Positions 763-11,944 of a stretch of 50,234 nt of DNA are shown here, piece after piece. The stretch lies in assembly GCA_040220235.1 (NCBI GenBank), contig JAVJTO010000105.1; one strand, 5' to 3'. The notes under the pieces are model-generated. The model was not told the origin of the DNA, made no database searches, and was given only the letters and a program-made list of their open reading frames with translations. Source of the DNA: Coleofasciculus sp. B1-GNL1-01 (GTDB lineage: Bacteria; Cyanobacteriota; Cyanobacteriia; Cyanobacteriales; Coleofasciculaceae). The stretch's first letter is position 1. Each line of letters opens with the position of its first letter. A program made the translations under genes and the position numbers.

Positions 763-2361
763 TCACAACACAGGGGGAAGTCCCACATCTCTAGGCTTGA
801 CAAATTTACCATTAAACCCTAACGCTTTTCCCTCAATTGTTCTGGCTTCGGCTAATTCTCGCCGCAGTTCGGCTTTTTCCATCCCATCCTCTGTCCCCGC
901 AATAATATAAATCAGTAATCGGGCGGCTAAATCTCGTCCCGATACCATGATCCGCTTTTTATTCGGGTCAAATAACACCCCATACCACAGGGATTGCGGC
1001 GTCTCCATCTGACTAAATCCCCCTTCGGCGTCGTACTTACTGAGTTTCTTAAATACCGTTTTTAGCGATAACTTTTTCTGAAATACCACAATTCCTAAGG
1101 CTTGGGTAAAGGCAATTTGCCCCACGGGACGGAAAAGGATATTACCCTCACCGCCATTTTTCTCAAAGCTGAAACGGCGTAACTGGGGGGTTTCTTCTCC
1201 TTGGTCTAACCGTTGATAACTGGGTAAGCTGGCTAAGTAATCAAAAAATTGATTAAAGGTGTCAATTCCCGCCTCTAATTCCTCATCATCGGGACGCATC
1301 GGGATTAACCCTTTCTTCTCCGGCGGTTTCCAGTGGGGGAATTGATGGTCTAGATACCGTTGAGACATTTCATTTAACGCCTGGAGGGTGGTTAAAACGG
1401 TGGATTTGGCGGCGACGGTGGCGCTATCCCAATTAACACGGGGGTTGCGTCCAGGGACTTCTTTTAATAAGGGATGATTGACGGCGATTTTGCGGGCGAC
1501 GATGGAAAAGCCGTCATTTTCATTTAATAGGGCGAGTTGTCCTTTACTTAAGCGTAATGCCATTAAGTTGACGTGGACGAAAATAGACCGGACGCGCCGT
1601 CTTGCTTCGTCGCGGGTTTCACCTTTGGCGATGGCGGGGATGAATTCGATACCGATTTTTTCCTGGGCGAGACTTTGCAGGTAGGCGGGCTTGAGTTGGT
1701 ATTCGTCGATTAGGTCATCTATGGTAATTACACTGCCGACGGGTTTCTTGTTTTTGTTGTAACGTTGCAGTCTCCCGGTTTTAAGTAACGTCATGAGTCC
1801 CTGAACACCCATGAGTCGGTGTTGACCATCGAGGGCGAAGATGGACACGGAGGGGGAGACATCCAGGAGTCCGACGGTTTGGTTTTGGTCGAGGGGAATG
1901 AAATCCGCCGCAGACTGGCGGGCGCGTCCTTGTTTATCCCATTCTTTGGCTTTGGGATTGTCTACCCAGGTGGGGCTGTGAACGACGAGAACGGCGGGGA
2001 ATTTGTGGGCTTGGCGGGCGGCGAGGTATTGGGTGAGGGGGGCTTGACGGGACCAGTCGAGGGGACGTTGCAGGATTTCATCGACGGTTTCTTCATCCCG
2101 GATGACGTTATCGGTTTGGGGGTCGAATTTTTGCCGGAATAGGGGGAGTTGGGAGGCGAAGCGGACGCGGCTATCTAACCATTCGAGGGTGACGGACCCG
2201 ATAAAGGCTTCGGTACTCCCCATCTGGGTTTTCTGGACAAGGAGGCGATCGCTTCTGGCTAAATGGCGATCCAATAGCAGGGCTAGCGCCTGTCGATCCT
2301 GGCTGTCTTGTTCCAGGATTTGGCTGGCGATGTCTGCTTTTGGCTTGTCGGGGCTACTCAT
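763..2361 (-). CDS. DGQHR-domain (DndB-like, ParB/Srx superfamily) protein
   Basis: Motifs ILQRPLDWSR, FPAVL, ALDGQHRL and IFVHVN. Divergent from the dnd cluster. Confidence 0.88.
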   Translation of the reverse strand: MSSPDKPKADIASQILEQDSQDRQALALLLDRHLARSDRLLVQKTQMGSTEAFIGSVTLEWLDSRVRFASQLPLFRQKFDPQTDNVIRDEETVDEILQRPLDWSRQAPLTQYLAARQAHKFPAVLVVHSPTWVDNPKAKEWDKQGRARQSAADFIPLDQNQTVGLLDVSPSVSIFALDGQHRLMGVQGLMTLLKTGRLQRYNKNKKPVGSVITIDDLIDEYQLKPAYLQSLAQEKIGIEFIPAIAKGETRDEARRRVRSIFVHVNLMALRLSKGQLALLNENDGFSIVARKIAVNHPLLKEVPGRNPRVNWDSATVAAKSTVLTTLQALNEMSQRYLDHQFPHWKPPEKKGLIPMRPDDEELEAGIDTFNQFFDYLASLPSYQRLDQGEETPQLRRFSFEKNGGEGNILFRPVGQIAFTQALGIVVFQKKLSLKTVFKKLSKYDAEGGFSQMETPQSLWYGVLFDPNKKRIMVSGRDLAARLLIYIIAGTEDGMEKAELRRELAEARTIEGKALGFNGKFVKPRDVGLPPVL

Positions 2362-2860: not shown

Positions 2861-2940
2861 AAGGACAAAGGACAAAGGACAAAGGACAAAGGACGAATGA
2901 CCAAGGACAAAGGACAAAGGACGAATGACAAATGACCAAT
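2861..2940 (+). repeat. Heptamer tandem repeat (AAGGACA/AATGACA, STRR-like)
   Basis: About 11 units running into the dndB start codon. Confidence 0.9.
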
Positions 2941-4356
2941 CACCAAGGACTGATTCCTTCTTTTGAGTACGTTTTACCCGCAATCCGAGGGATTCAAGCG
3001 GGACGGGAATATTATGTGTCGATGTGTCCAGTGCGATTTATTCCTAAACTGTTTGCGAGGGAGGATGAGGAGAATCCGCCGGATCAGAGAGTGGCGCGAT
3101 CGCTTAATTCTAAACGAGTCCCAGATATTGCTAACTATATTCTGAATAATCCTGATAATTACACCGTTTCCGCGATTACCGCCGCGATTGACGCTGATAT
3201 TAATTTTGAACCGATTGGTACTGAGAAAGAAGGGCGAAAAATGGGACGCTTACGAGTTCCCATGGATGCGCGGTTTCAGATTACCGATGGACAACATCGC
3301 TGCGCGGCGTTTGAATGGGCGCTGAAGCAGAATCCGGCGTTGGGGTATGAGACAGTGGCGGTTATTTTAGTGTTGGATATTGGGTTGCGCTATTCCCAGC
3401 AGATGTTTTTGGATCTCAACCGTTATGGGGTTCATCCCGATGCTTCCCTGGCGATTCTCTATGATCATCGCCATCCCCCGGCGACGGTGGTCAAAGCAGT
3501 GATTAGAAATATTAATGTGTTCCGAAGCCTAACCGATCAGGAACATCAGACATTACCCGTGCGATCGGGGAAGCTATTTACGCTGCATACCCTCTATAAT
3601 GCTACGTCTATGCTATTGGCGGATTGGCAAACGGCTGAATTAGAACAGCAGATTGATTTGGCAATCCGGTATTGGCAAGCTGTGAGTTATTGTATTCCAG
3701 ATTGGGAGGCGGTGAGACAACGGACTGTAAGCGCCAGGGAGATGCGACAGGATTATGTTCATAGTCACGAGATCGCACTTTTGGGATTGGGGGCGGTAGG
3801 GTCAGTGTTACTCTCGGTTTATCCCCATAGCTGGGAGGAAAGGTTGCAGGAATTGCGATGGATTGGCTGGTCGCGTTCTAATCCCGATTGGGAGGGGCTG
3901 ATTATGGTCAAGGGTCAGATTTCGCGATCGCGAACCAGTATAGGGCGGATGGTGGCTTATTTGAAAGAATATTTGGGTTTACCGTTAACTTCACAGGAGG
4001 AAGAGTTAGAAAATTCTAGTGGTTTAGTCGGGAGGGAGAATAGTCGTCAACAAGACCAGCAAAAACAACGGTTCATTCGGCGGAATACAGACCAATTTAT
4101 CGTGATTCTCTCGGCTTGTGGGAATCCGGACTTTAGACAGACTGAGGATATTGGCGTCCCTACTCTAAAATTACCTGTTCATTCCCTTGAGGAAGCCTCT
4201 CAAATCTGTCAAGGATACATTCTGGAGTATGAGTTAGGCGGGGGGAACTGGACAGGTGGGCAAGTTTTGGATGCTAGAACCAATGAACAAGTTGCTTATA
4301 TCGCCTGTAGTGGCAAGATTTGGACGGAGTTAGAAGATTGGATGAGATTAAAATGA
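2932..4356 (+). CDS. dndB: DNA sulfur modification protein DndB with an extra C-terminal domain
   Basis: PAIRGIQAGREYYVSMCP, ITDGQHR, QQMFLDLN and LGLPLT..EE are DndB motifs. About 110 further residues follow the usual end. Confidence 0.9.
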   Translation: MTNHQGLIPSFEYVLPAIRGIQAGREYYVSMCPVRFIPKLFAREDEENPPDQRVARSLNSKRVPDIANYILNNPDNYTVSAITAAIDADINFEPIGTEKEGRKMGRLRVPMDARFQITDGQHRCAAFEWALKQNPALGYETVAVILVLDIGLRYSQQMFLDLNRYGVHPDASLAILYDHRHPPATVVKAVIRNINVFRSLTDQEHQTLPVRSGKLFTLHTLYNATSMLLADWQTAELEQQIDLAIRYWQAVSYCIPDWEAVRQRTVSAREMRQDYVHSHEIALLGLGAVGSVLLSVYPHSWEERLQELRWIGWSRSNPDWEGLIMVKGQISRSRTSIGRMVAYLKEYLGLPLTSQEEELENSSGLVGRENSRQQDQQKQRFIRRNTDQFIVILSACGNPDFRQTEDIGVPTLKLPVHSLEEASQICQGYILEYELGGGNWTGGQVLDARTNEQVAYIACSGKIWTELEDWMRLK

Positions 4357-4458
4357 TCACCACTATTTATATCCAGCTTAACTTAGTCCAGGTTAATTAA
4401 TTTTTAGCTACAGAATAAAAAGGTGATCACAGACAAATGATTGAGTCAGGAGGCACAG

Positions 4459-5448
4459 ATGAGTCAAGGACAGCAATCAGAAACTCGGCGAACGCTTGCT
4501 TTCTACTGCGATTGCTTCCCTAAAATCAATGTATATAAGAATAAACAACGAGGAGGCAAAGCCCTAAATCAACCTGTACTGTTGTTGTCTGTCATTGATT
4601 TAATTGCCCAAGGATTAATCCAGGATAATAAAATTTCAATTTCAGACGAATTAATTGACACATTTCAAAAATATTGGAATTTGCTGAACGCTGAAGCGTT
4701 TAAAAATAGTGATTTTGCTTTACCCTTCTTTCATTTAAAGAATAGCGAAGGTCGATTTTGGCATCTGCAATTTAGTGCTGCTTACGATGGAGGTCGTCCG
4801 CAAACAATCAACACGTTAAGACGTGATGTTGATTATGCCTATCTAGATGATCAACTTTTTGAGTTAATCCAAGACCAGAATCATCGACAAGAATTAGTTG
4901 ATGCCCTTGTCGCCGCTTGGTTTTCATCCCAAGGAAAAGCATTAGAGGAGATTCTCAAAATTAATCAAGCATTTCAAGATAGTAGTCAAGAAGAAGAGGA
5001 AGTTGAACAAAGCAGCAGTTCTACCCAATCGGAGAAACAACCAAGATTTTATTTAAGGAAGTCTCTATTTAGAGATGCTATTTTTCGGAAAACGGTAGTG
5101 CATATCTATGATTATAAATGTGCCTTCTGTAGACTCAAAATTACTCGTACCTTTACTCAAAATATAGTAGATGGCGCACATATTAAACCTTTTTCCGAGT
5201 TTTATGATAGTCAAATAGACAATGGATTATCACTCTGCAAGAATCATCATTGGGCATTTGACCATGGTTGGTTTTGCCTAGATGACAACTACAAAATCAT
5301 AATCGCTAGTGATTTGCAGGAGGAATCACCACACAGTAGACCGATGAAGGATTTTCATGGCGAAACTATATTATTGCCGAGTTCTGAAGAATACTTTCCC
5401 CGACTTGAGGCACTTCAATGGCATCGCCAAACTAAGTTTGTAACCTAA
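4459..5448 (+). CDS. SBD-HNH endonuclease (phosphorothioate-reader-type N-terminal domain plus HNH)
   Basis: N-terminal PVLLLSVIDLI...LPFFHL...FWHL. C-terminal CAFC...DGAHIKPF...NGLSLCKNHHWAFD. AGGAGG at 4448-4453 precedes ATG 4459. Confidence 0.85.
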   Translation: MSQGQQSETRRTLAFYCDCFPKINVYKNKQRGGKALNQPVLLLSVIDLIAQGLIQDNKISISDELIDTFQKYWNLLNAEAFKNSDFALPFFHLKNSEGRFWHLQFSAAYDGGRPQTINTLRRDVDYAYLDDQLFELIQDQNHRQELVDALVAAWFSSQGKALEEILKINQAFQDSSQEEEEVEQSSSSTQSEKQPRFYLRKSLFRDAIFRKTVVHIYDYKCAFCRLKITRTFTQNIVDGAHIKPFSEFYDSQIDNGLSLCKNHHWAFDHGWFCLDDNYKIIIASDLQEESPHSRPMKDFHGETILLPSSEEYFPRLEALQWHRQTKFVT

Positions 5449-5487
5449 TCAGTAATCAATAACAGTAGCATTAACGAGATTTCAGGT

Positions 5488-7107
5488 ATGACAGATAACC
5501 AACAGATGTCACTCTTCCCACCACGTACTGTGGCTGAGTTAGTGGAAGATATAGAACAACTCACTCAAGAAATACAAGAGTTATATTGCGAGGATAATAT
5601 ACCATTTGTTATTGGCTGGTCAGGTGGGAAAGATAGTACAGTTGTATTGCAGCTAGTCTGGAATGCGATCGCAGCCCTACCCCCAGAAAAACGCACGAAA
5701 ACAATTCATGTTATTACTAATGACACGCTAGTAGAAAACCCCATTGTTACGGCTTGGGTACGTAAATCTTTGGATCGAATGAAGATAGCTGCCCAAAAGC
5801 AAGGAATGCCGATCCAACCTCATCTCACGTATCCGGCTATTCAAGATACATTTTGGGTTTGTTTAATTGGCAAAGGCTATCCCGCCCCCAGAAATCGATT
5901 TAGATGGTGTACGGAACGCTTAAAAATTAAACCAGCTGACTCTTTCATCCGCGAAGTGATTAGAACGAACGGTGAGGTGATTCTGGTTTTGGGAACTCGC
6001 AAAGCTGAAAGTGTCAAACGGGCGGCAAATATGGCTAAACATAGAGAGTGGCGAGTGCGCGATCGCTTAAATACGAATCCCAGTCGCCCTAACTCTCTCA
6101 TTTACCTTCCCATTGAAGATTGGCGAACTGATGAAGTTTGGCTTTATTTGATGCAGTGGCAAAATCCCTGGGGTAATAATAACAAAGACTTATTCTCCAT
6201 GTATCGGGGGGCAACAGCCGATAATGAATGTCCCTTGGTTATTGATACCTCAACCCCTAGCTGTGGGGATTCCCGGTTTGGTTGTTGGGTTTGCACTATG
6301 GTTAATAAAGATAAGTCCATGGAGGCGATGATCCAAAATGATGAGGAGAAAGAGTGGATGCAGCCTCTGCTGGATATTCGCAATGATTTGGATATTAAAG
6401 ATGATCACGATAAGAGAGACTTCCGCCGTATTTACGGTAAAGTTGAACTCTTTGAACGCAATGTTGATGGTGAAATCTCCGTTAAACCGATTCATGGTCC
6501 CTATACGAAATACTGGCGGGAACATTGGTTAAGGCGCGTCTTAGAAGCCCAAACCCATGTCCGAAATACCGCGCCCCCAGAGATGCGTGATATTACTCTG
6601 ATTACTCCAGAGGAACTTAGTGAAATTCGCCGTATCTGGTTAGAAGAAAAACATGAATTTGACGATAGCTTACCCCGTATCTATGAAGATATAACAAGCG
6701 AACCCTTCCAAGATTCCCGCCCTAGCGCCGAACGCAAACTTTTGGGTAGTGATGAATGGACAGTCTTAGAAGAAATCTGTGACCAGGATGAAATGCACCT
6801 GGAACTTATGGCAAAACTTCTGGACACTGAACGCCAATATCATACTAAATCCCGACGGGGTATCTATGAAGCCCTAGAAAAATGTTTTAATAGTAGTTCT
6901 CGTTCTCGAGAAGACGCGATTGACCACGCCTACTATCAGCGACATCTGAAAAATACGGTTCAAGATATCAAACAGGATTTGTCAGATGTTCACGAATTGA
7001 GACAGGCTTGGGATAAGCCGAAGCAAGAGAAACCTAAACAGCTATCCTGGGCGAGTTTAAAATTCCCCGAACCCGATTCAGAGGATACTGAAGATGTAGA
7101 TGGATAG
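5488..7107 (+). CDS. dndC: DNA phosphorothioation sulfurtransferase DndC (PAPS-reductase family)
   Basis: SGGKDS PP-loop, DTLVENP, FRWCTERLKI, ECPLVID...SCGDSRFGCWVCT. Confidence 0.96.
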   Translation: MTDNQQMSLFPPRTVAELVEDIEQLTQEIQELYCEDNIPFVIGWSGGKDSTVVLQLVWNAIAALPPEKRTKTIHVITNDTLVENPIVTAWVRKSLDRMKIAAQKQGMPIQPHLTYPAIQDTFWVCLIGKGYPAPRNRFRWCTERLKIKPADSFIREVIRTNGEVILVLGTRKAESVKRAANMAKHREWRVRDRLNTNPSRPNSLIYLPIEDWRTDEVWLYLMQWQNPWGNNNKDLFSMYRGATADNECPLVIDTSTPSCGDSRFGCWVCTMVNKDKSMEAMIQNDEEKEWMQPLLDIRNDLDIKDDHDKRDFRRIYGKVELFERNVDGEISVKPIHGPYTKYWREHWLRRVLEAQTHVRNTAPPEMRDITLITPEELSEIRRIWLEEKHEFDDSLPRIYEDITSEPFQDSRPSAERKLLGSDEWTVLEEICDQDEMHLELMAKLLDTERQYHTKSRRGIYEALEKCFNSSSRSREDAIDHAYYQRHLKNTVQDIKQDLSDVHELRQAWDKPKQEKPKQLSWASLKFPEPDSEDTEDVDG

Positions 7108-7271: not shown

Positions 7272-7374
7272 TAAGCTGTCATGCATTTAAATTGGGTATT
7301 AGTAGCGAGCAAGATGCTCGCACTACAAGGATTGCGCCATTCTTGATATTAAGGTTTAAATGCCGAACAGCTTA
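7272..7374. mobile_element. MITE-like element, TIR TAAGCTGTnnnGCATTTAAA
   Basis: Terminal inverted repeats. Related copies at 25613-25708, 33519-33648 and a partial one at 45802. Confidence 0.75.
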
Positions 7375-7400: not shown

Positions 7401-9386
7401 ATGATATTCCTGGAACTCGCCCTGCAAAACTTTGGTCCCTATCAAGGGCGACAAGTCATCAACCTCCGTCCCGAAACTAACAATTCTACCCATCCGATTA
7501 TTCTATTTGGCGGGATGAATGGGGGTGGAAAAACTACCCTGATGGACGCCATTCGCCTCACTCTCTACGGTTCCCGCGCCCAATGTTCCACTAGGGGAAA
7601 TTTAAGCTATAACGACTTTCTCAACCAATGCGTGAACCGGAACACTCCGCCCACAGAAAACACTCGGATTGAATTAGCCTTTGAAGTCGTCGAAGAGGAT
7701 AAACCTAGGACTCTGAGAATTGTCCGTTATTGGACAAAAGACCCCAAAGAGGGGAAAGACACTCTAGGTATTTTAGTGGATGAAGAGTGGCCCGATAAAG
7801 CCCTGGCAAATACCTGGGATGACTATATCGAAAATCTGCTTCCTCTGGGTATTTCTAATCTCTTTCTCTTTGATGGGGAACAAGTCAAAGAATTGGCAGA
7901 ACTAGAAACTCCACCTCCTTTGGTAGTAAGTGCGATTCAATCCCTGCTGGGGTTAGAACTGGCTGAACGCCTATCCACAGATTTAGATATTCTCGCCAGT
8001 CGCAAGCGCCGGGATATTGCCAATCAGAAAGAACTGGAAACCTTAGATAACATTGAAGCCAAACTTATTGACCAAAAAGAAAAACAAGAAGCGGCGACAC
8101 AAGACTTAAGCGCCCTAAAATCCAAACTGGACTATGCTGCAAAAGAACAACAGGTAGCGTCGGATAAATTTGTCTCCGAAGGCGGTAAACTTGCCAGCGA
8201 ACGCAGTCAACTGGAAGCCCAATCGAAAACACTGATTGAACAAGCGAATCAGGTGCGTCAAGAGATGCGAGATTTGGCGGCTGGTGTACTTCCCCTCTCT
8301 CTGATTTCTCCGCTATTGGAACAAGCGAAAGCCCAAGCGGAACAGGAACAAAAACAGCACCAAGTTAAACTGACACGAGATGTGTTGAAAGAACGGGATG
8401 TTCGGTTAATTCAGTATATCAAAAAAATCTCCTTAACCCCCAAGCGAGTCAATCAGATTCAATCGTTTATAGAGACTGAAAATCAAGAACTGGATCAAGA
8501 AATTGCCGCCCAAGAGGAACCGTGGTTATTAGCCGATGAAGCCGCCATCACTCGCCTAGAAACCCTGCTGAACTATGAACTCTCAACCGCACAAACCAAC
8601 GCCCAAAGCCAACGCGAACGCCTGCAAGCCCTAGAAACTGAAATTGATGCGTTAGATCGGCAAATTGCTACCGCCGCGTCTCCTGAAGCCTACAACGCCC
8701 TGAAACAGGCATTTACTGACGCCCAAAATCAAGTGATCAAGGTTAAAGCGGCTTACGAAAATGCTTCTCGCCGCTGTGATGAAATAGATCGTCAAATTAG
8801 GGAAACGAAAAAGGAGTTAGAAGATTATGCGGATGAAACGATTAAACTGAAAAATAATCAGCATATTATTAATTCGATTGCCAAGGTTAAAACCACATTG
8901 GAACTCTTTCGAGAGAAATTAACTCTGAAAAAACTCAACAAACTGGAAATCGAAGTTACCGAATGCTTCCGTTATCTGCTGCATAAATCCGACTTAGTTC
9001 ACCGCGTCGCCATTGACACCCACAGCTTCAGCCTGTCTCTCTATGATCCCGAAGGACAACCAATTCCCAAACATCGTCTCTCGGCGGGGGAAAAGCAACT
9101 ATTAGCAATTTCCTTTCTTTGGGGACTTGCCCGTGTTTCTGGGCGTCATCTTCCGGTAGCGATTGATACACCGTTAGGACGGTTAGATTCCTCTCACCGG
9201 AGTAATTTAGTGGAACGGTATTTCCCTACGGCGTCCCATCAAGTGATCCTGTTATCCACGGATACGGAAATTAGGGAAACTGAGGTAAAACGCCTCCGAG
9301 AATTAGACGCGATCGCCCAAGAGTATTGTCTGAATTATGACCCCCAAGAACGGCAGACGATTGTGGAACCGGGTTATTTTTGGTAA
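7401..9386 (+). CDS. dndD: DNA sulfur modification protein DndD (SMC-like ATPase)
   Basis: Walker A GMNGGGKTT, LFLFDGEQ, long coiled coil, LSAGEKQ, IDTPLGRLDS.HR, QVILLSTDTEI, C-terminal GYFW. Confidence 0.96.
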   Translation: MIFLELALQNFGPYQGRQVINLRPETNNSTHPIILFGGMNGGGKTTLMDAIRLTLYGSRAQCSTRGNLSYNDFLNQCVNRNTPPTENTRIELAFEVVEEDKPRTLRIVRYWTKDPKEGKDTLGILVDEEWPDKALANTWDDYIENLLPLGISNLFLFDGEQVKELAELETPPPLVVSAIQSLLGLELAERLSTDLDILASRKRRDIANQKELETLDNIEAKLIDQKEKQEAATQDLSALKSKLDYAAKEQQVASDKFVSEGGKLASERSQLEAQSKTLIEQANQVRQEMRDLAAGVLPLSLISPLLEQAKAQAEQEQKQHQVKLTRDVLKERDVRLIQYIKKISLTPKRVNQIQSFIETENQELDQEIAAQEEPWLLADEAAITRLETLLNYELSTAQTNAQSQRERLQALETEIDALDRQIATAASPEAYNALKQAFTDAQNQVIKVKAAYENASRRCDEIDRQIRETKKELEDYADETIKLKNNQHIINSIAKVKTTLELFREKLTLKKLNKLEIEVTECFRYLLHKSDLVHRVAIDTHSFSLSLYDPEGQPIPKHRLSAGEKQLLAISFLWGLARVSGRHLPVAIDTPLGRLDSSHRSNLVERYFPTASHQVILLSTDTEIRETEVKRLRELDAIAQEYCLNYDPQERQTIVEPGYFW

Positions 9387-9727: not shown

Positions 9728-11944
9728 CTAGTTAGCACCCTCTTTTAGCGATTTCAATACGATTTTATCCTCTATTATTTCAATAGTCTGGTTTTCCACC
9801 TGAATTCGGGGATTGAATCCAGGTCTTAAAACCTCAACCTCAGGCGCTGTCCCGGATTGAACGGTCATGACTACAATAAAGCGATCGCGCCCTGTGGCTT
9901 GAATCCTTCCTCCTGTCTCACTGGGGATAAATTCCAGGTTCACATCGGAGGGTGTAATAAAGGTTCCTTGCATCGTCGCCCCAGATTCCGCCTCTAGGGT
10001 AAACTGTTGACCCTGAATCGTCACCTTTTCCTGGGTATGCATAATCCAGGTTTGATCTGCTTCTGCGGCGTCAACCACCTGATCCACCAAGACAAACAAC
10101 CCCGGTACACCAGATGCGCCACTATAATCCACCGCGAGCGATCGCAACCAGTTCTGGTGGTGTAAACTAACCATACCCGACCCATCCGGATTTGCCTGAA
10201 ATCCCGTCACTTTCGCCGTCTTCCCCGCTTGTTTTTCCGGTAGCAACACCACATTTTCATCCCTCTGTGTCCCATCAGATGCCGATCCTGCTGTCGCCCA
10301 GCGCCCTCCTAAGCCCCAAATCCGGAAACTTCCCGCATCGGGAAATGACCAATGTCCGCCTCTGGGTTTTTCTCGCTTGACAAAAATACTGGTGACAAAA
10401 TCATTCTCATCTCGCCATTGATTGCGGAACGTAAAGAAGCCTTTTTGGGCATCCACTATTACCCGCCCCCATACCTCTGCGGGGTTCTGGAGGGTTACGT
10501 CTTGAGGATATCCGGCGAAAATATACGCCGCTTCATGGGGTAACTCTATGCCAAAACTGTTATCCCCCTTCCTCCCCCAATGACGGTTAAAGAACCACAT
10601 AACTCCCGGTAGCAGCCGTTCCGGGACTATCCCCAATCCCACCGCAAAGATAGAACCCGTGGGGCTTAAGCGATGACGCCCATAGGTGGGAATCGCCACC
10701 TCCCCGTCTTCACCCACCATTCGGGTTACATACTGAGGTAGAAACCAAGCCGCGTGCGATCGCGTGACCAAATCTTCCCCCAATACAGTCTGGTAAGCTT
10801 GTAAAAAGGGCATTACCGTGAGAAACCAGGGTTCGGTACTGTAATGATCACCCTCCGACCCAAAACCGCGATCGCCAATGCCAATCGTCAGATAGCGTTT
10901 AATATTCCGTTCCGCCACTTTCAGCCAACGCCAACTCTGGGCATCCCCCTCCTCCAGTAGCGCCAACGCCGCTAACCCCGCCGCCCCTCGCGCCCTCGCA
11001 TTCCAGTTACTCGCCGGGTTAGGATTCCAGCCATCACCCGCCGTTCCTTTCACCAGCAGGGCGGTTTGAGTCCCTAACCAATCGGCGACTTGTTGGATCT
11101 GTTCCTGATCCCAAGCCGGATAACACAAATCATACGCCAACGCCACGCCTGCAACTACTGTAGAATGTTCTAGTAAACGGCGTCCGGGTTGGTTCATGGA
11201 ATTAACCGTAATCTGCCAAGCGGTTGCAGCAGCAGCTTGATCCTGCTGGATTAGGGAGAGGAAGCAGTAACCAGCCGCGTGATAGCCACCAGTTGGCACA
11301 TAGCCATCGTAATAGATGGGTTGGTCTAGACTCCGTTGCAACTGTGCCAGAATTGCCTCACCCCTGGGGGTTTTAGCCTGCTGACGCAATTGGGGAAGTT
11401 GATCTGGGCGAAAAATTAATCGAGGATGTTCCTGGGGGCGCAGAGGACGATGATTTGCCACAGGTTTTGACCAATGGGGACGAATAATTCCCTGGACTTC
11501 TCCCTTGACAGGTTGGTCATTTAGGGTTCCAGAATAAGTGCCAATTAGTTGATTATCGTCATGCAAGCGCACTTGGATATCATACTCTGCTTGTCCTTCT
11601 AGGGATTGCCAAGGATCAGGACTAATTTGCATCTGCACATCCAGGTTCCATAACCGTCCCCGTTGACTTGTCTGGAGAACTCCCTGATGATCCGCCTGAT
11701 TGAACTTCGGCGCAAATCCCCATACTTCGCGATCGCACTTATTCGCATCACAGACTAAATCGAGGGTAATATCCTGATAAACAGGTTCCCCTTCCCAGGT
11801 TTTCCACACGCCACGTTTTAGGGTTAAACGGATATCCCCGGATAACATAGCTGGATCAATCATTCCTGCTGGGGAAGGATGAGAACCGCCTAGCCAAAAT
11901 AGAAATGACGCGGTGATTAAATAAAGGATTTTGTTATTAGTCAT
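9728..11944 (-). CDS. Secreted protein with heparinase II/III-like (polysaccharide lyase-type) architecture
   Basis: Signal peptide, HPRLIF, Ala-rich helical repeats, SNW, EGDHY, PDAGSF and a beta-rich C-terminus. Confidence 0.6.
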   Translation of the reverse strand: MTNNKILYLITASFLFWLGGSHPSPAGMIDPAMLSGDIRLTLKRGVWKTWEGEPVYQDITLDLVCDANKCDREVWGFAPKFNQADHQGVLQTSQRGRLWNLDVQMQISPDPWQSLEGQAEYDIQVRLHDDNQLIGTYSGTLNDQPVKGEVQGIIRPHWSKPVANHRPLRPQEHPRLIFRPDQLPQLRQQAKTPRGEAILAQLQRSLDQPIYYDGYVPTGGYHAAGYCFLSLIQQDQAAAATAWQITVNSMNQPGRRLLEHSTVVAGVALAYDLCYPAWDQEQIQQVADWLGTQTALLVKGTAGDGWNPNPASNWNARARGAAGLAALALLEEGDAQSWRWLKVAERNIKRYLTIGIGDRGFGSEGDHYSTEPWFLTVMPFLQAYQTVLGEDLVTRSHAAWFLPQYVTRMVGEDGEVAIPTYGRHRLSPTGSIFAVGLGIVPERLLPGVMWFFNRHWGRKGDNSFGIELPHEAAYIFAGYPQDVTLQNPAEVWGRVIVDAQKGFFTFRNQWRDENDFVTSIFVKREKPRGGHWSFPDAGSFRIWGLGGRWATAGSASDGTQRDENVVLLPEKQAGKTAKVTGFQANPDGSGMVSLHHQNWLRSLAVDYSGASGVPGLFVLVDQVVDAAEADQTWIMHTQEKVTIQGQQFTLEAESGATMQGTFITPSDVNLEFIPSETGGRIQATGRDRFIVVMTVQSGTAPEVEVLRPGFNPRIQVENQTIEIIEDKIVLKSLKEGAN

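Follow-up and report, generated by a model that had tools for sequence, protein, structure and literature searches.

The window, meaning here the whole 50,234-nucleotide stretch of DNA analysed from Coleofasciculus sp. B1-GNL1-01, carries a PT-writing dnd locus in which a nuclease gene resides among the writer genes. On the + strand, the nuclease ORF (4459..5448) begins 102 nt downstream of dndB (2932..4356; TIGR03233, 422 bits) and ends 39 nt upstream of dndC, the gene for the PT writer (5488..7107; TIGR03183, 709 bits), which is followed by dndD (7401..9386), a gene that follows host lineage. The nuclease is 329 amino acids long from its ATG, which lies 5 nt beyond an AGGAGG ribosome-binding motif (4448..4453, + strand), and it joins a sulfur-binding domain (SBD) of the winged-helix (wHTH) type, here of the allele called type A, to an HNH domain. 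A sequence-only reading of this DNA had placed an SBD-HNH gene with a strong ribosome-binding site inside a dnd writer locus, and the family matches, the structure matches and the slot between dndB and dndC all bear this out. A DGQHR-domain gene on the - strand (763..2361), which in family f5 is located between the nuclease and dndC, serves as a linkage control.

Other Dnd/Pbe-type parts are scattered in this genome (C170:3767-5110, C19:54352-54807, C88:115212-115523 and C74:20858-22288). Each of dndE, dnd_assoc_4, a dnd-associated methyltransferase and a TIGR04095 helicase resides on another contig, with dndE on C88; the helicase is 458 amino acids long and begins at its helicase motifs, without an N-terminal nuclease. 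No match to the three DndFGH families, for which the nuclease had been proposed to stand in, was found in this 100% complete genome, where control queries were likewise silent, and the nuclease itself matches no DndF, DndG or DndH family. Several repeats and fragments also were observed. An approximately 103-bp repeat with internal symmetry lies between dndC and dndD (7272-7374); it is MITE-like, has 162 genome matches of at least 90 nt and shows very high depth in all four runs. Directly before dndB are 7-nt tandem repeats (2860-2935), within a wider stretch (2641-2935) that has 190 genome matches. The contig starts with an IS1380 transposase fragment (80-400), and dndD is followed by a gene (9728-11944) for a secreted-looking protein of 738 amino acids with weak heparin-lyase similarity.

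The N-terminal domain (residues 11-158; 4489..4932, + strand) matches SBDHga in sequence searches (E 5e-16, 33% identity), and its AlphaFold model superimposes on that domain with a Z score of 20.7 (rmsd 1.9, 142 residues aligned). Scores of 13.6 and 12.9 were obtained with the SBDs of ScoMcrA and SprMcrA, and thus the overlay on ScoMcrA proposed in the sequence-only reading confirms that the domain models as an SBD. The C-terminus matches HNH family PF13391 (39.8 bits), and the nuclease core (5119..5283, + strand) retains its zinc and catalytic residues and tracks host lineage, not SBD type. All 98 dnd-side homologs compared share residues C221, C224, D238, H241, N255, C260, H263, H264 and D268 without variation, so the HNH residues are intact, as had been stated. 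Values of dN/dS range from 0.05 to 0.43 in nine type A pairs, one value being undefined. Therefore, both the SBD fold and the HNH site are intact and under purifying selection. The protein scores 98.1 bits against NCBIfam NF045808, for which the cut-off is 180, and a type B relative also falls below it (132 bits). A family search for an SRA domain between SBD and HNH gave no match, and a helical or disordered linker of approximately 45 residues occupies this place.

The GC content of the nuclease gene is 37.5%, which is in the 2nd percentile among 990-bp genome windows and compares with 47.5% for dndB and 45.5% for the genome, in agreement with the earlier remark that the gene is AT-richer than dndB. 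It also lacks a HIP1 site, as had been pointed out, but 47% of the 990-bp windows in this genome are HIP1-free, and foreign origin on the basis of this absence was therefore rejected. Contigs from three RNA runs span the nuclease gene but also intergenic DNA. In runs X3 and X4, contigs that join position 4388 to 5499, and thus dndB to dndC without the nuclease, occur alongside contigs with an intact copy, which hints that a gene-less haplotype coexists in one mat habitat.

Known SBDs provide a frame for examining the sulfur pocket. The pocket of ScoMcrA is formed by H116, R117, Y164, P165 and A168, and the changes R117A and R117G are reported to abolish binding (PMC6224610). Those of SprMcrA, which binds PT DNA (PMC7470945), and SBDHga (PMC10602919) comprise Y31, Q32, Y78, P79 and A82 in the former and H25, K26, L75, P76 and H79 in the latter. 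Residues N37, Q38, L88, P89 and H92 of the window nuclease align to the five SBDHga positions. The pair N37/Q38 is part of the pocket wall, lies within an A-L-N-Q-P motif (residues 35-39; 4561..4575, + strand) and is equivalent to H116/R117 of ScoMcrA, Y31/Q32 of SprMcrA and H25/K26 of SBDHga. The other three residues, which serve as lid, floor and wall, belong to the LPFFHL motif (residues 88-93), which is intact as had been described. Thus, there is solved precedent at four of five positions (Q38, L88, P89 and H92), whereas N37 and the full combination are without one, and no tested precedent for a His-to-Asn change at position 37 was found in the portion of the literature on SBD nucleases that was available.

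The window nuclease shares its two-domain layout, fold and pocket positions with the SBD-HNH enzymes SprMcrA and EcoWI (PMC7461809, PMC7470945). SprMcrA also has Gln at the R117 position (PMC7470945). ScoMcrA resembles the window protein in its SBD fold, its A-L-x-x-P motif and an Arg-Pro L4 loop, but it carries an SRA domain and its host is dnd-minus (PMC6224610). The closest solved domain is SBDHga (PDB 8H0L), which has the same L/P/H half of the pocket; however, it belongs to a PD-(D/E)XK nuclease, has H25/K26, and is sequence-promiscuous with a short, neutral L4 loop (PMC10602919), whereas the type A L4 loop bears an Arg.

The sequence-only reading treated A-L-N-Q-P as an altered motif and proposed that this alteration allows the nuclease to coexist with a PT writer. 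The motif is real and was present in 55 among the 120 best matches, but its 'A-L' is no departure, as ScoMcrA has A-L-H-R-P. The pocket pairs in the 106 dnd-side cyanobacterial copies, of which 46 come from the phylum sample and 60 from new loci, are YK (41), NQ (22), NK (21), HK (16), YQ (4) and HQ (2), whereas among 131 clusters of distant relatives HK accounts for 106 and NQ for none. All 22 NQ copies seen are dnd-side, consistent with the anticipated association with dnd. However, NK and NQ interchange inside one clade (21 versus 22 copies), and 50 of 53 type B copies in the same slot have a fully canonical pocket (HK or YK with Y-P). Because canonical pockets sit beside the writer, NQ is not required for coexistence. 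In SprMcrA, for which PT binding is proven, the pocket is lined by Tyr31 and Gln32 (PMC7470945). On these two grounds NQ was rejected as the cause of coexistence, and it is one tolerated pocket variant rather than a switch. The pocket-floor Pro is lost in three of 49 type A copies whose genes are still intact, and A-P-Y-K-P occurs together with window-type L3-L4 loops in L068, L220 and L227. Judging from these alignments, the writer is tracked by the base-reading segment (approximately residues 80-120) and not by the two pocket residues. In the window, this segment comprises L3, helix A4 and L4 (4699..4809, + strand), including L88, P89, H92 and the base-reading loop YDGGRPQT.

Among 401 genomes of the phylum, 64 match the nuclease protein and 115 carry dndC. 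Of 58 places examined in this sample, 46 are dnd-side, within approximately 5 kb upstream of dndC, so that the nuclease is present at dndC in 46 of the 115 dndC-positive genomes. The places examined exclude eight weak matches, of which seven cover HNH alone and one is the G127 fragment, encountered again in L094. The coupling counts given below omit the remaining 12 places, which lie outside a standard dnd locus (three are on contigs shorter than 8 kb, and L052 is ambiguous). The slot just upstream of dndC is fixed in most families. A second scan had dndC in view for 78 of the 80 best genome matches (best 80 of 574). Broken nuclease copies number five of 46 in the phylum sample and four of 80 in the second set of best matches, where three of 78 dndC genes are broken. 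A DndB-like DGQHR gene of 390 amino acids fills the nuclease slot in 33 loci (L088-L147), three of which have both genes, and rarer occupants include 417- and 664-amino-acid DGQHR genes, AIPR genes and LAGLIDADG genes. A single-protein query of viral contigs revealed no relative of the nuclease, and a search for cyanophage DndC gave no close match.

The N-terminal half of DndC falls into approximately six alleles, based on a tree of 106 N-halves (105 loci plus the window) that lacks 10 of the 115 dndC genomes. The nuclease is present with 13 of 15 alpha, 16 of 16 gamma-group and 14 of 17 beta-group alleles, versus none of 23 delta and one of 22 zeta alleles. The SBDs on the dnd side are mainly of two types, namely type A, which is window-like (F-A-L-P, GGRPQT), and type B (L-H-Y-P, GLQPKT). 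Loci were labelled by SBD type alone, and their neighbours were then tested for the label. In DndC, 24 columns separate type A loci from the rest, all within residues 44-207 (5617..6108, + strand, allele alpha in the window), whereas there are none in DGQHR or DndD. This region includes the segment named the specificity loop in PMC12193691, which in the window reads G-Y-P-A-P-R-N-R-F-R-W (5875..5907, + strand); its R-x-R fits the rough GpsGCC pattern published there. All 13 type A loci, which represent five families, have R-N-R or R-R-R in this loop. No relative of DndC with a solved structure was found, and the specificity loop has a pLDDT below 50 in the predicted model.

The SBD label requires one change on the tree of DndC residues 20-215 (support 99, 45 rows), compared with 10 on DndC residues 216-500, 11 on DGQHR and 10 on DndD (45, 40 and 41 rows), the partial DndC of L075 being absent from these trees. 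A tree of the whole DndC protein blends host and allele signals. With the naming columns removed from either protein, the label needs two changes, versus a mean of approximately 11 for shuffled labels. Independent pairs on host-proxy trees agree in 8 of 8 (p 0.008) and 6 of 6 cases (p 0.03), and AU tests reject the label group on the HNH domain (p 3e-8) and on the DndC C-half (p 4e-4), with 25 rows each. DndE was rejected as the co-varying partner because the alpha allele needs nine changes on the DndE tree (65 rows) versus one on that of the DndC N-half; within a genus, DndE is 98-100% identical across DndC alleles, and like the HNH domain it tracks the host. On the reader side, 25 SBD columns separate A from B, among which those of L4 and residue 88 are circular. 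They cluster on L1, A2, L3, A4 and L4, the DNA-contact elements of SBDHga (PMC10602919), and none lies in residues 200-329.

In family f5, the gene order is SBD-HNH, DGQHR, dndC. Two loci of the same genus, L067 and L031, are 49% identical in the SBD, 98% in HNH, 97% in DGQHR, 70% in the DndC N-half, 87% in the DndC C-half and 93% in DndD. At the DNA level, identity is 50-64% over the SBD, 93-100% for approximately 2.3 kb and 61-76% over the DndC N-half. The L065/L083 and L068/L085 pairs repeat this two-tract pattern. The exchanged part of the L068 SBD has its centre at residues ~80-120, and this locus retains its A-P-Y-K-P pocket; therefore the relevant part of the SBD in such swaps is L3-A4-L4, its lid and base-reading loop. 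Thus, the DNA-contacting segment of the SBD and the DndC N-half have been swapped between strains as two separate tracts while staying matched, and the intervening and surrounding DNA tracks the host.

This pattern is repeated in a hold-out set of 60 new loci (the best 80 of 574 matches minus 20 duplicates), which is biased to close matches, mostly Nostoc and Microcoleus, and whose rows are not independent. Loci with alpha DndC carry a type A or A-like SBD in 33 cases (one, L176, with a frameshifted DndC) and another type in one case, with type B in none of 34. Non-alpha DndC is accompanied by type B in 22 loci and by type A in two, L160 and L220, both of them intact mismatches; two further loci have no dndC in view. 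Type B pairs with three DndC alleles, namely beta, gamma1 and gamma2.

Because two swapped tracts flank approximately 2.3 kb of 93-100% identical DNA, it is unlikely that the nuclease is simply a passenger co-transferred with dndC and without functional match. The two genes are neighbours, the nuclease is dispensable (present at 46 of 115 dndC-positive genomes, with five of 46 copies broken), and in genus g5 a single tract could cover the whole nuclease gene together with the DndC N-half. However, the HNH domain (f5, g57) and the 1.6-kb DGQHR gene (f5) intervene without co-varying, and these controls largely refute such hitchhiking, to which we assign only a very small probability.

We propose that the nuclease may be a modification-dependent (type IV-like), allele-matched partner of the cyanobacterial Dnd writer. 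Each DndC allele would write PT in its own sequence context, and the matched SBD would still bind Rp-PT but with L1, L3 and L4 loops that miss the host context and bind the contexts of other alleles. The HNH domain would then cut near foreign-allele marks, such that phage or plasmid DNA arriving from a strain with another DndC is restricted. A PT-dependent nuclease that is blind to its host's mark and cuts the marks of other alleles is a function to which we give roughly an even chance of being correct. A strain gaining an alpha writer would have to take type A loops or lose the nuclease gene, because a type B reader would cut the alpha-writer chromosome. In the sequence-only reading, altered specificity for a foreign PT motif was one of the branches; it corresponds to this proposal, which does not retain NQ as the switch.

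Avoidance of the host's mark is favoured over a cognate fit because type B, with its canonical pocket in 50 of 53 copies, serves three DndC alleles. It is ranked first because alpha DndC with type B is never seen (none of 34 in the hold-out), because partial PT marking makes protection by PT hard, and because characterised SBD nucleases are PT-directed, being described as binding or cutting PT DNA, a few weakly (PMC7461809, PMC10602919, PMC6224610). Differing specificity is also listed by Lutz et al. among explanations for the co-occurrence of SBD nucleases and dnd (PMC7461809). SBDHga, the closest solved relative, is reported to bind all five natural PT motifs (PMC10602919). Under a three-residue loop rule, the R-x-K/R shared by alpha, beta, gamma1 and delta would predict a single motif, GpsGCC, and therefore a distinct motif for each allele is an assumption. 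In type A, Arg113 of the L4 loop is invariant and lies near the position of the GGCC-reading R190/R191 of ScoMcrA. This would suggest that the predicted motif of the host itself is read and is a counterpoint to avoidance, as are the mismatched L160 and L220 and the type A copies that are without the pocket-floor Pro yet intact. Literature searches yielded neither PT maps nor nuclease assays for the organisms concerned.

A cognate reader-writer pair also predicts a near one-to-one match. Reader and DndC would then form a two-gene, allele-switching restriction-modification system, in which either the sulfur-reader spares PT sites or the writer tags unmethylated invaders behind host methylation; we regard this as possible but doubtful, and in either branch it would represent a logic not yet described for PT. 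In the first branch, which seems rather unlikely, the SBD reads the DndC-modified sequence and PT protects the site or holds the nuclease off. This is the 'inverted' branch of the sequence-only reading, is close to the model of Rakesh et al. and is akin to ordinary restriction-modification. The tight match of reader and writer, the fixed slot just upstream of dndC, the Arg113-bearing L4 loop and the variability of positions 37-38 here (HK in 16 of 106) relative to distant relatives (HK in 106 of 131) are consistent with it, as is the proposal that wHTH-fused nucleases are the true restriction partners (PMC10853773). However, in over-expressing E. coli only ~20% of the sites are reported to carry PT (PMC7461809), so that host sites would go unprotected. 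In addition, type B readers with canonical pockets pair with three alleles, and GGCC depletion in the fetched loci follows genus, not allele.

In the other branch, GGm4CC would shield the host, and unmethylated incoming DNA would be marked by DndCDE and then cut by a cognate PT-dependent reader. GpsGCC is the motif predicted from the R-N-R loop, two PF02086 methyltransferases that might supply the methylation are encoded in the genome, and ScoMcrA contacts N4 of the first C in GGCC, the atom that is methylated by the cyanobacterial M.Ssp6803II/DmtB (PMC6105098). In addition, GGCC is the lowest of all 4-mers in this genome (579 sites in 8.66 Mb, ratio 0.024, ~40-fold depleted). However, the N4 contact comes from a Tyr lid that is missing in type A (Leu88), and relatives that carry other alleles or lack an SBD gene show the depletion as well. 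We judge this arrangement unlikely. Ratios in relatives vary by genus from 0 to above 1, and group ratios are 0.36-0.57 for all DndC alleles (13-17 kb per genome); GGCC depletion was thus rejected as an allele-specific footprint of the nuclease. Matching at the protein level, wherein the SBD binds the DndC N-half and the nuclease is recruited or restrained in a guard or antitoxin logic, would explain why two domains co-vary across separate tracts. We nevertheless consider it quite improbable, given that the type-defining SBD columns sit on DNA-contact elements, that the DndC columns flank the predicted DNA-reading loop, and that related SBD-HNH genes occur away from dnd loci, plasmids included.

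In type I restriction-modification systems, hsdS and its target-recognition domains are specificity modules exchanged by recombination inside conserved frames. The dnd loci likewise exchange modules, but here writer and reader modules belong to two genes and must swap in step. SBD-HNH enzymes and their rare dnd neighbours are already known, with fewer than 3.6% of such nucleases reported near dnd by Lutz et al. (PMC7461809), whereas this clade is beside dndC in 78 of the 80 best matches and is allele-matched. In 698 taxa, Rakesh et al. (2024) describe Dnd loci with wHTH+SAD+HNH genes, to which they assign the role of restriction partner as a proposal (PMC10853773). These are likewise SBD/wHTH nucleases at dnd loci mostly without DndFGH, but the proteins have three domains and target choice is attributed to DndE, whereas here the protein has two domains, DndE is constant and the reader is coupled to the N-half of DndC. 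The available text of that study was found to report no allele matching. Literature searches, largely of openly accessible papers, found no report of allele-level SBD-DndC coupling.

PT restriction systems were described as absent from cyanobacteria by Jian et al. (PMC8569181), and the view that cyanobacterial dnd genes are solo writers without a restriction part is repeated in PMC12707154 and is the ground on which an antioxidant origin of PT has been proposed (PMC8569181, PMC12707154). Our findings suggest that reader and writer form a matched pair for defence in a group described as lacking restriction partners, and reader loops that are swapped in step with approximately six DndC alleles suggest a conflict role rather than an antioxidant one. 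The mosaic also bears on whether DndE (PMC10853773) or DndC (PMC12193691) chooses the PT site. These alleles combine an unchanging DndE with a switching DndC N-half and so offer natural material for testing this question; they could also be a source of further PT motifs and of PT readers with novel specificities for use in mapping.

Some copies away from the standard locus have pockets of their own. In Nostoc, Tolypothrix, Calothrix and Chondrocystis, free SBD-HNH genes on plasmids (L236-L238, L240, L241, L243 and L244) carry A-P-N-K-P in seven of seven cases, and this group is a second lineage with the His-to-Asn change. Four other free copies, from genomes in which dndC gave no match, have A-P-H-K-P or are missing that part. 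Two Picosynechococcus plasmids (L239, L242, L245 and L246) carry an A-P-H-Q-P nuclease near a dndC that is missing approximately 195 residues at its start, and further genes separate the nuclease from the shortened dndC.
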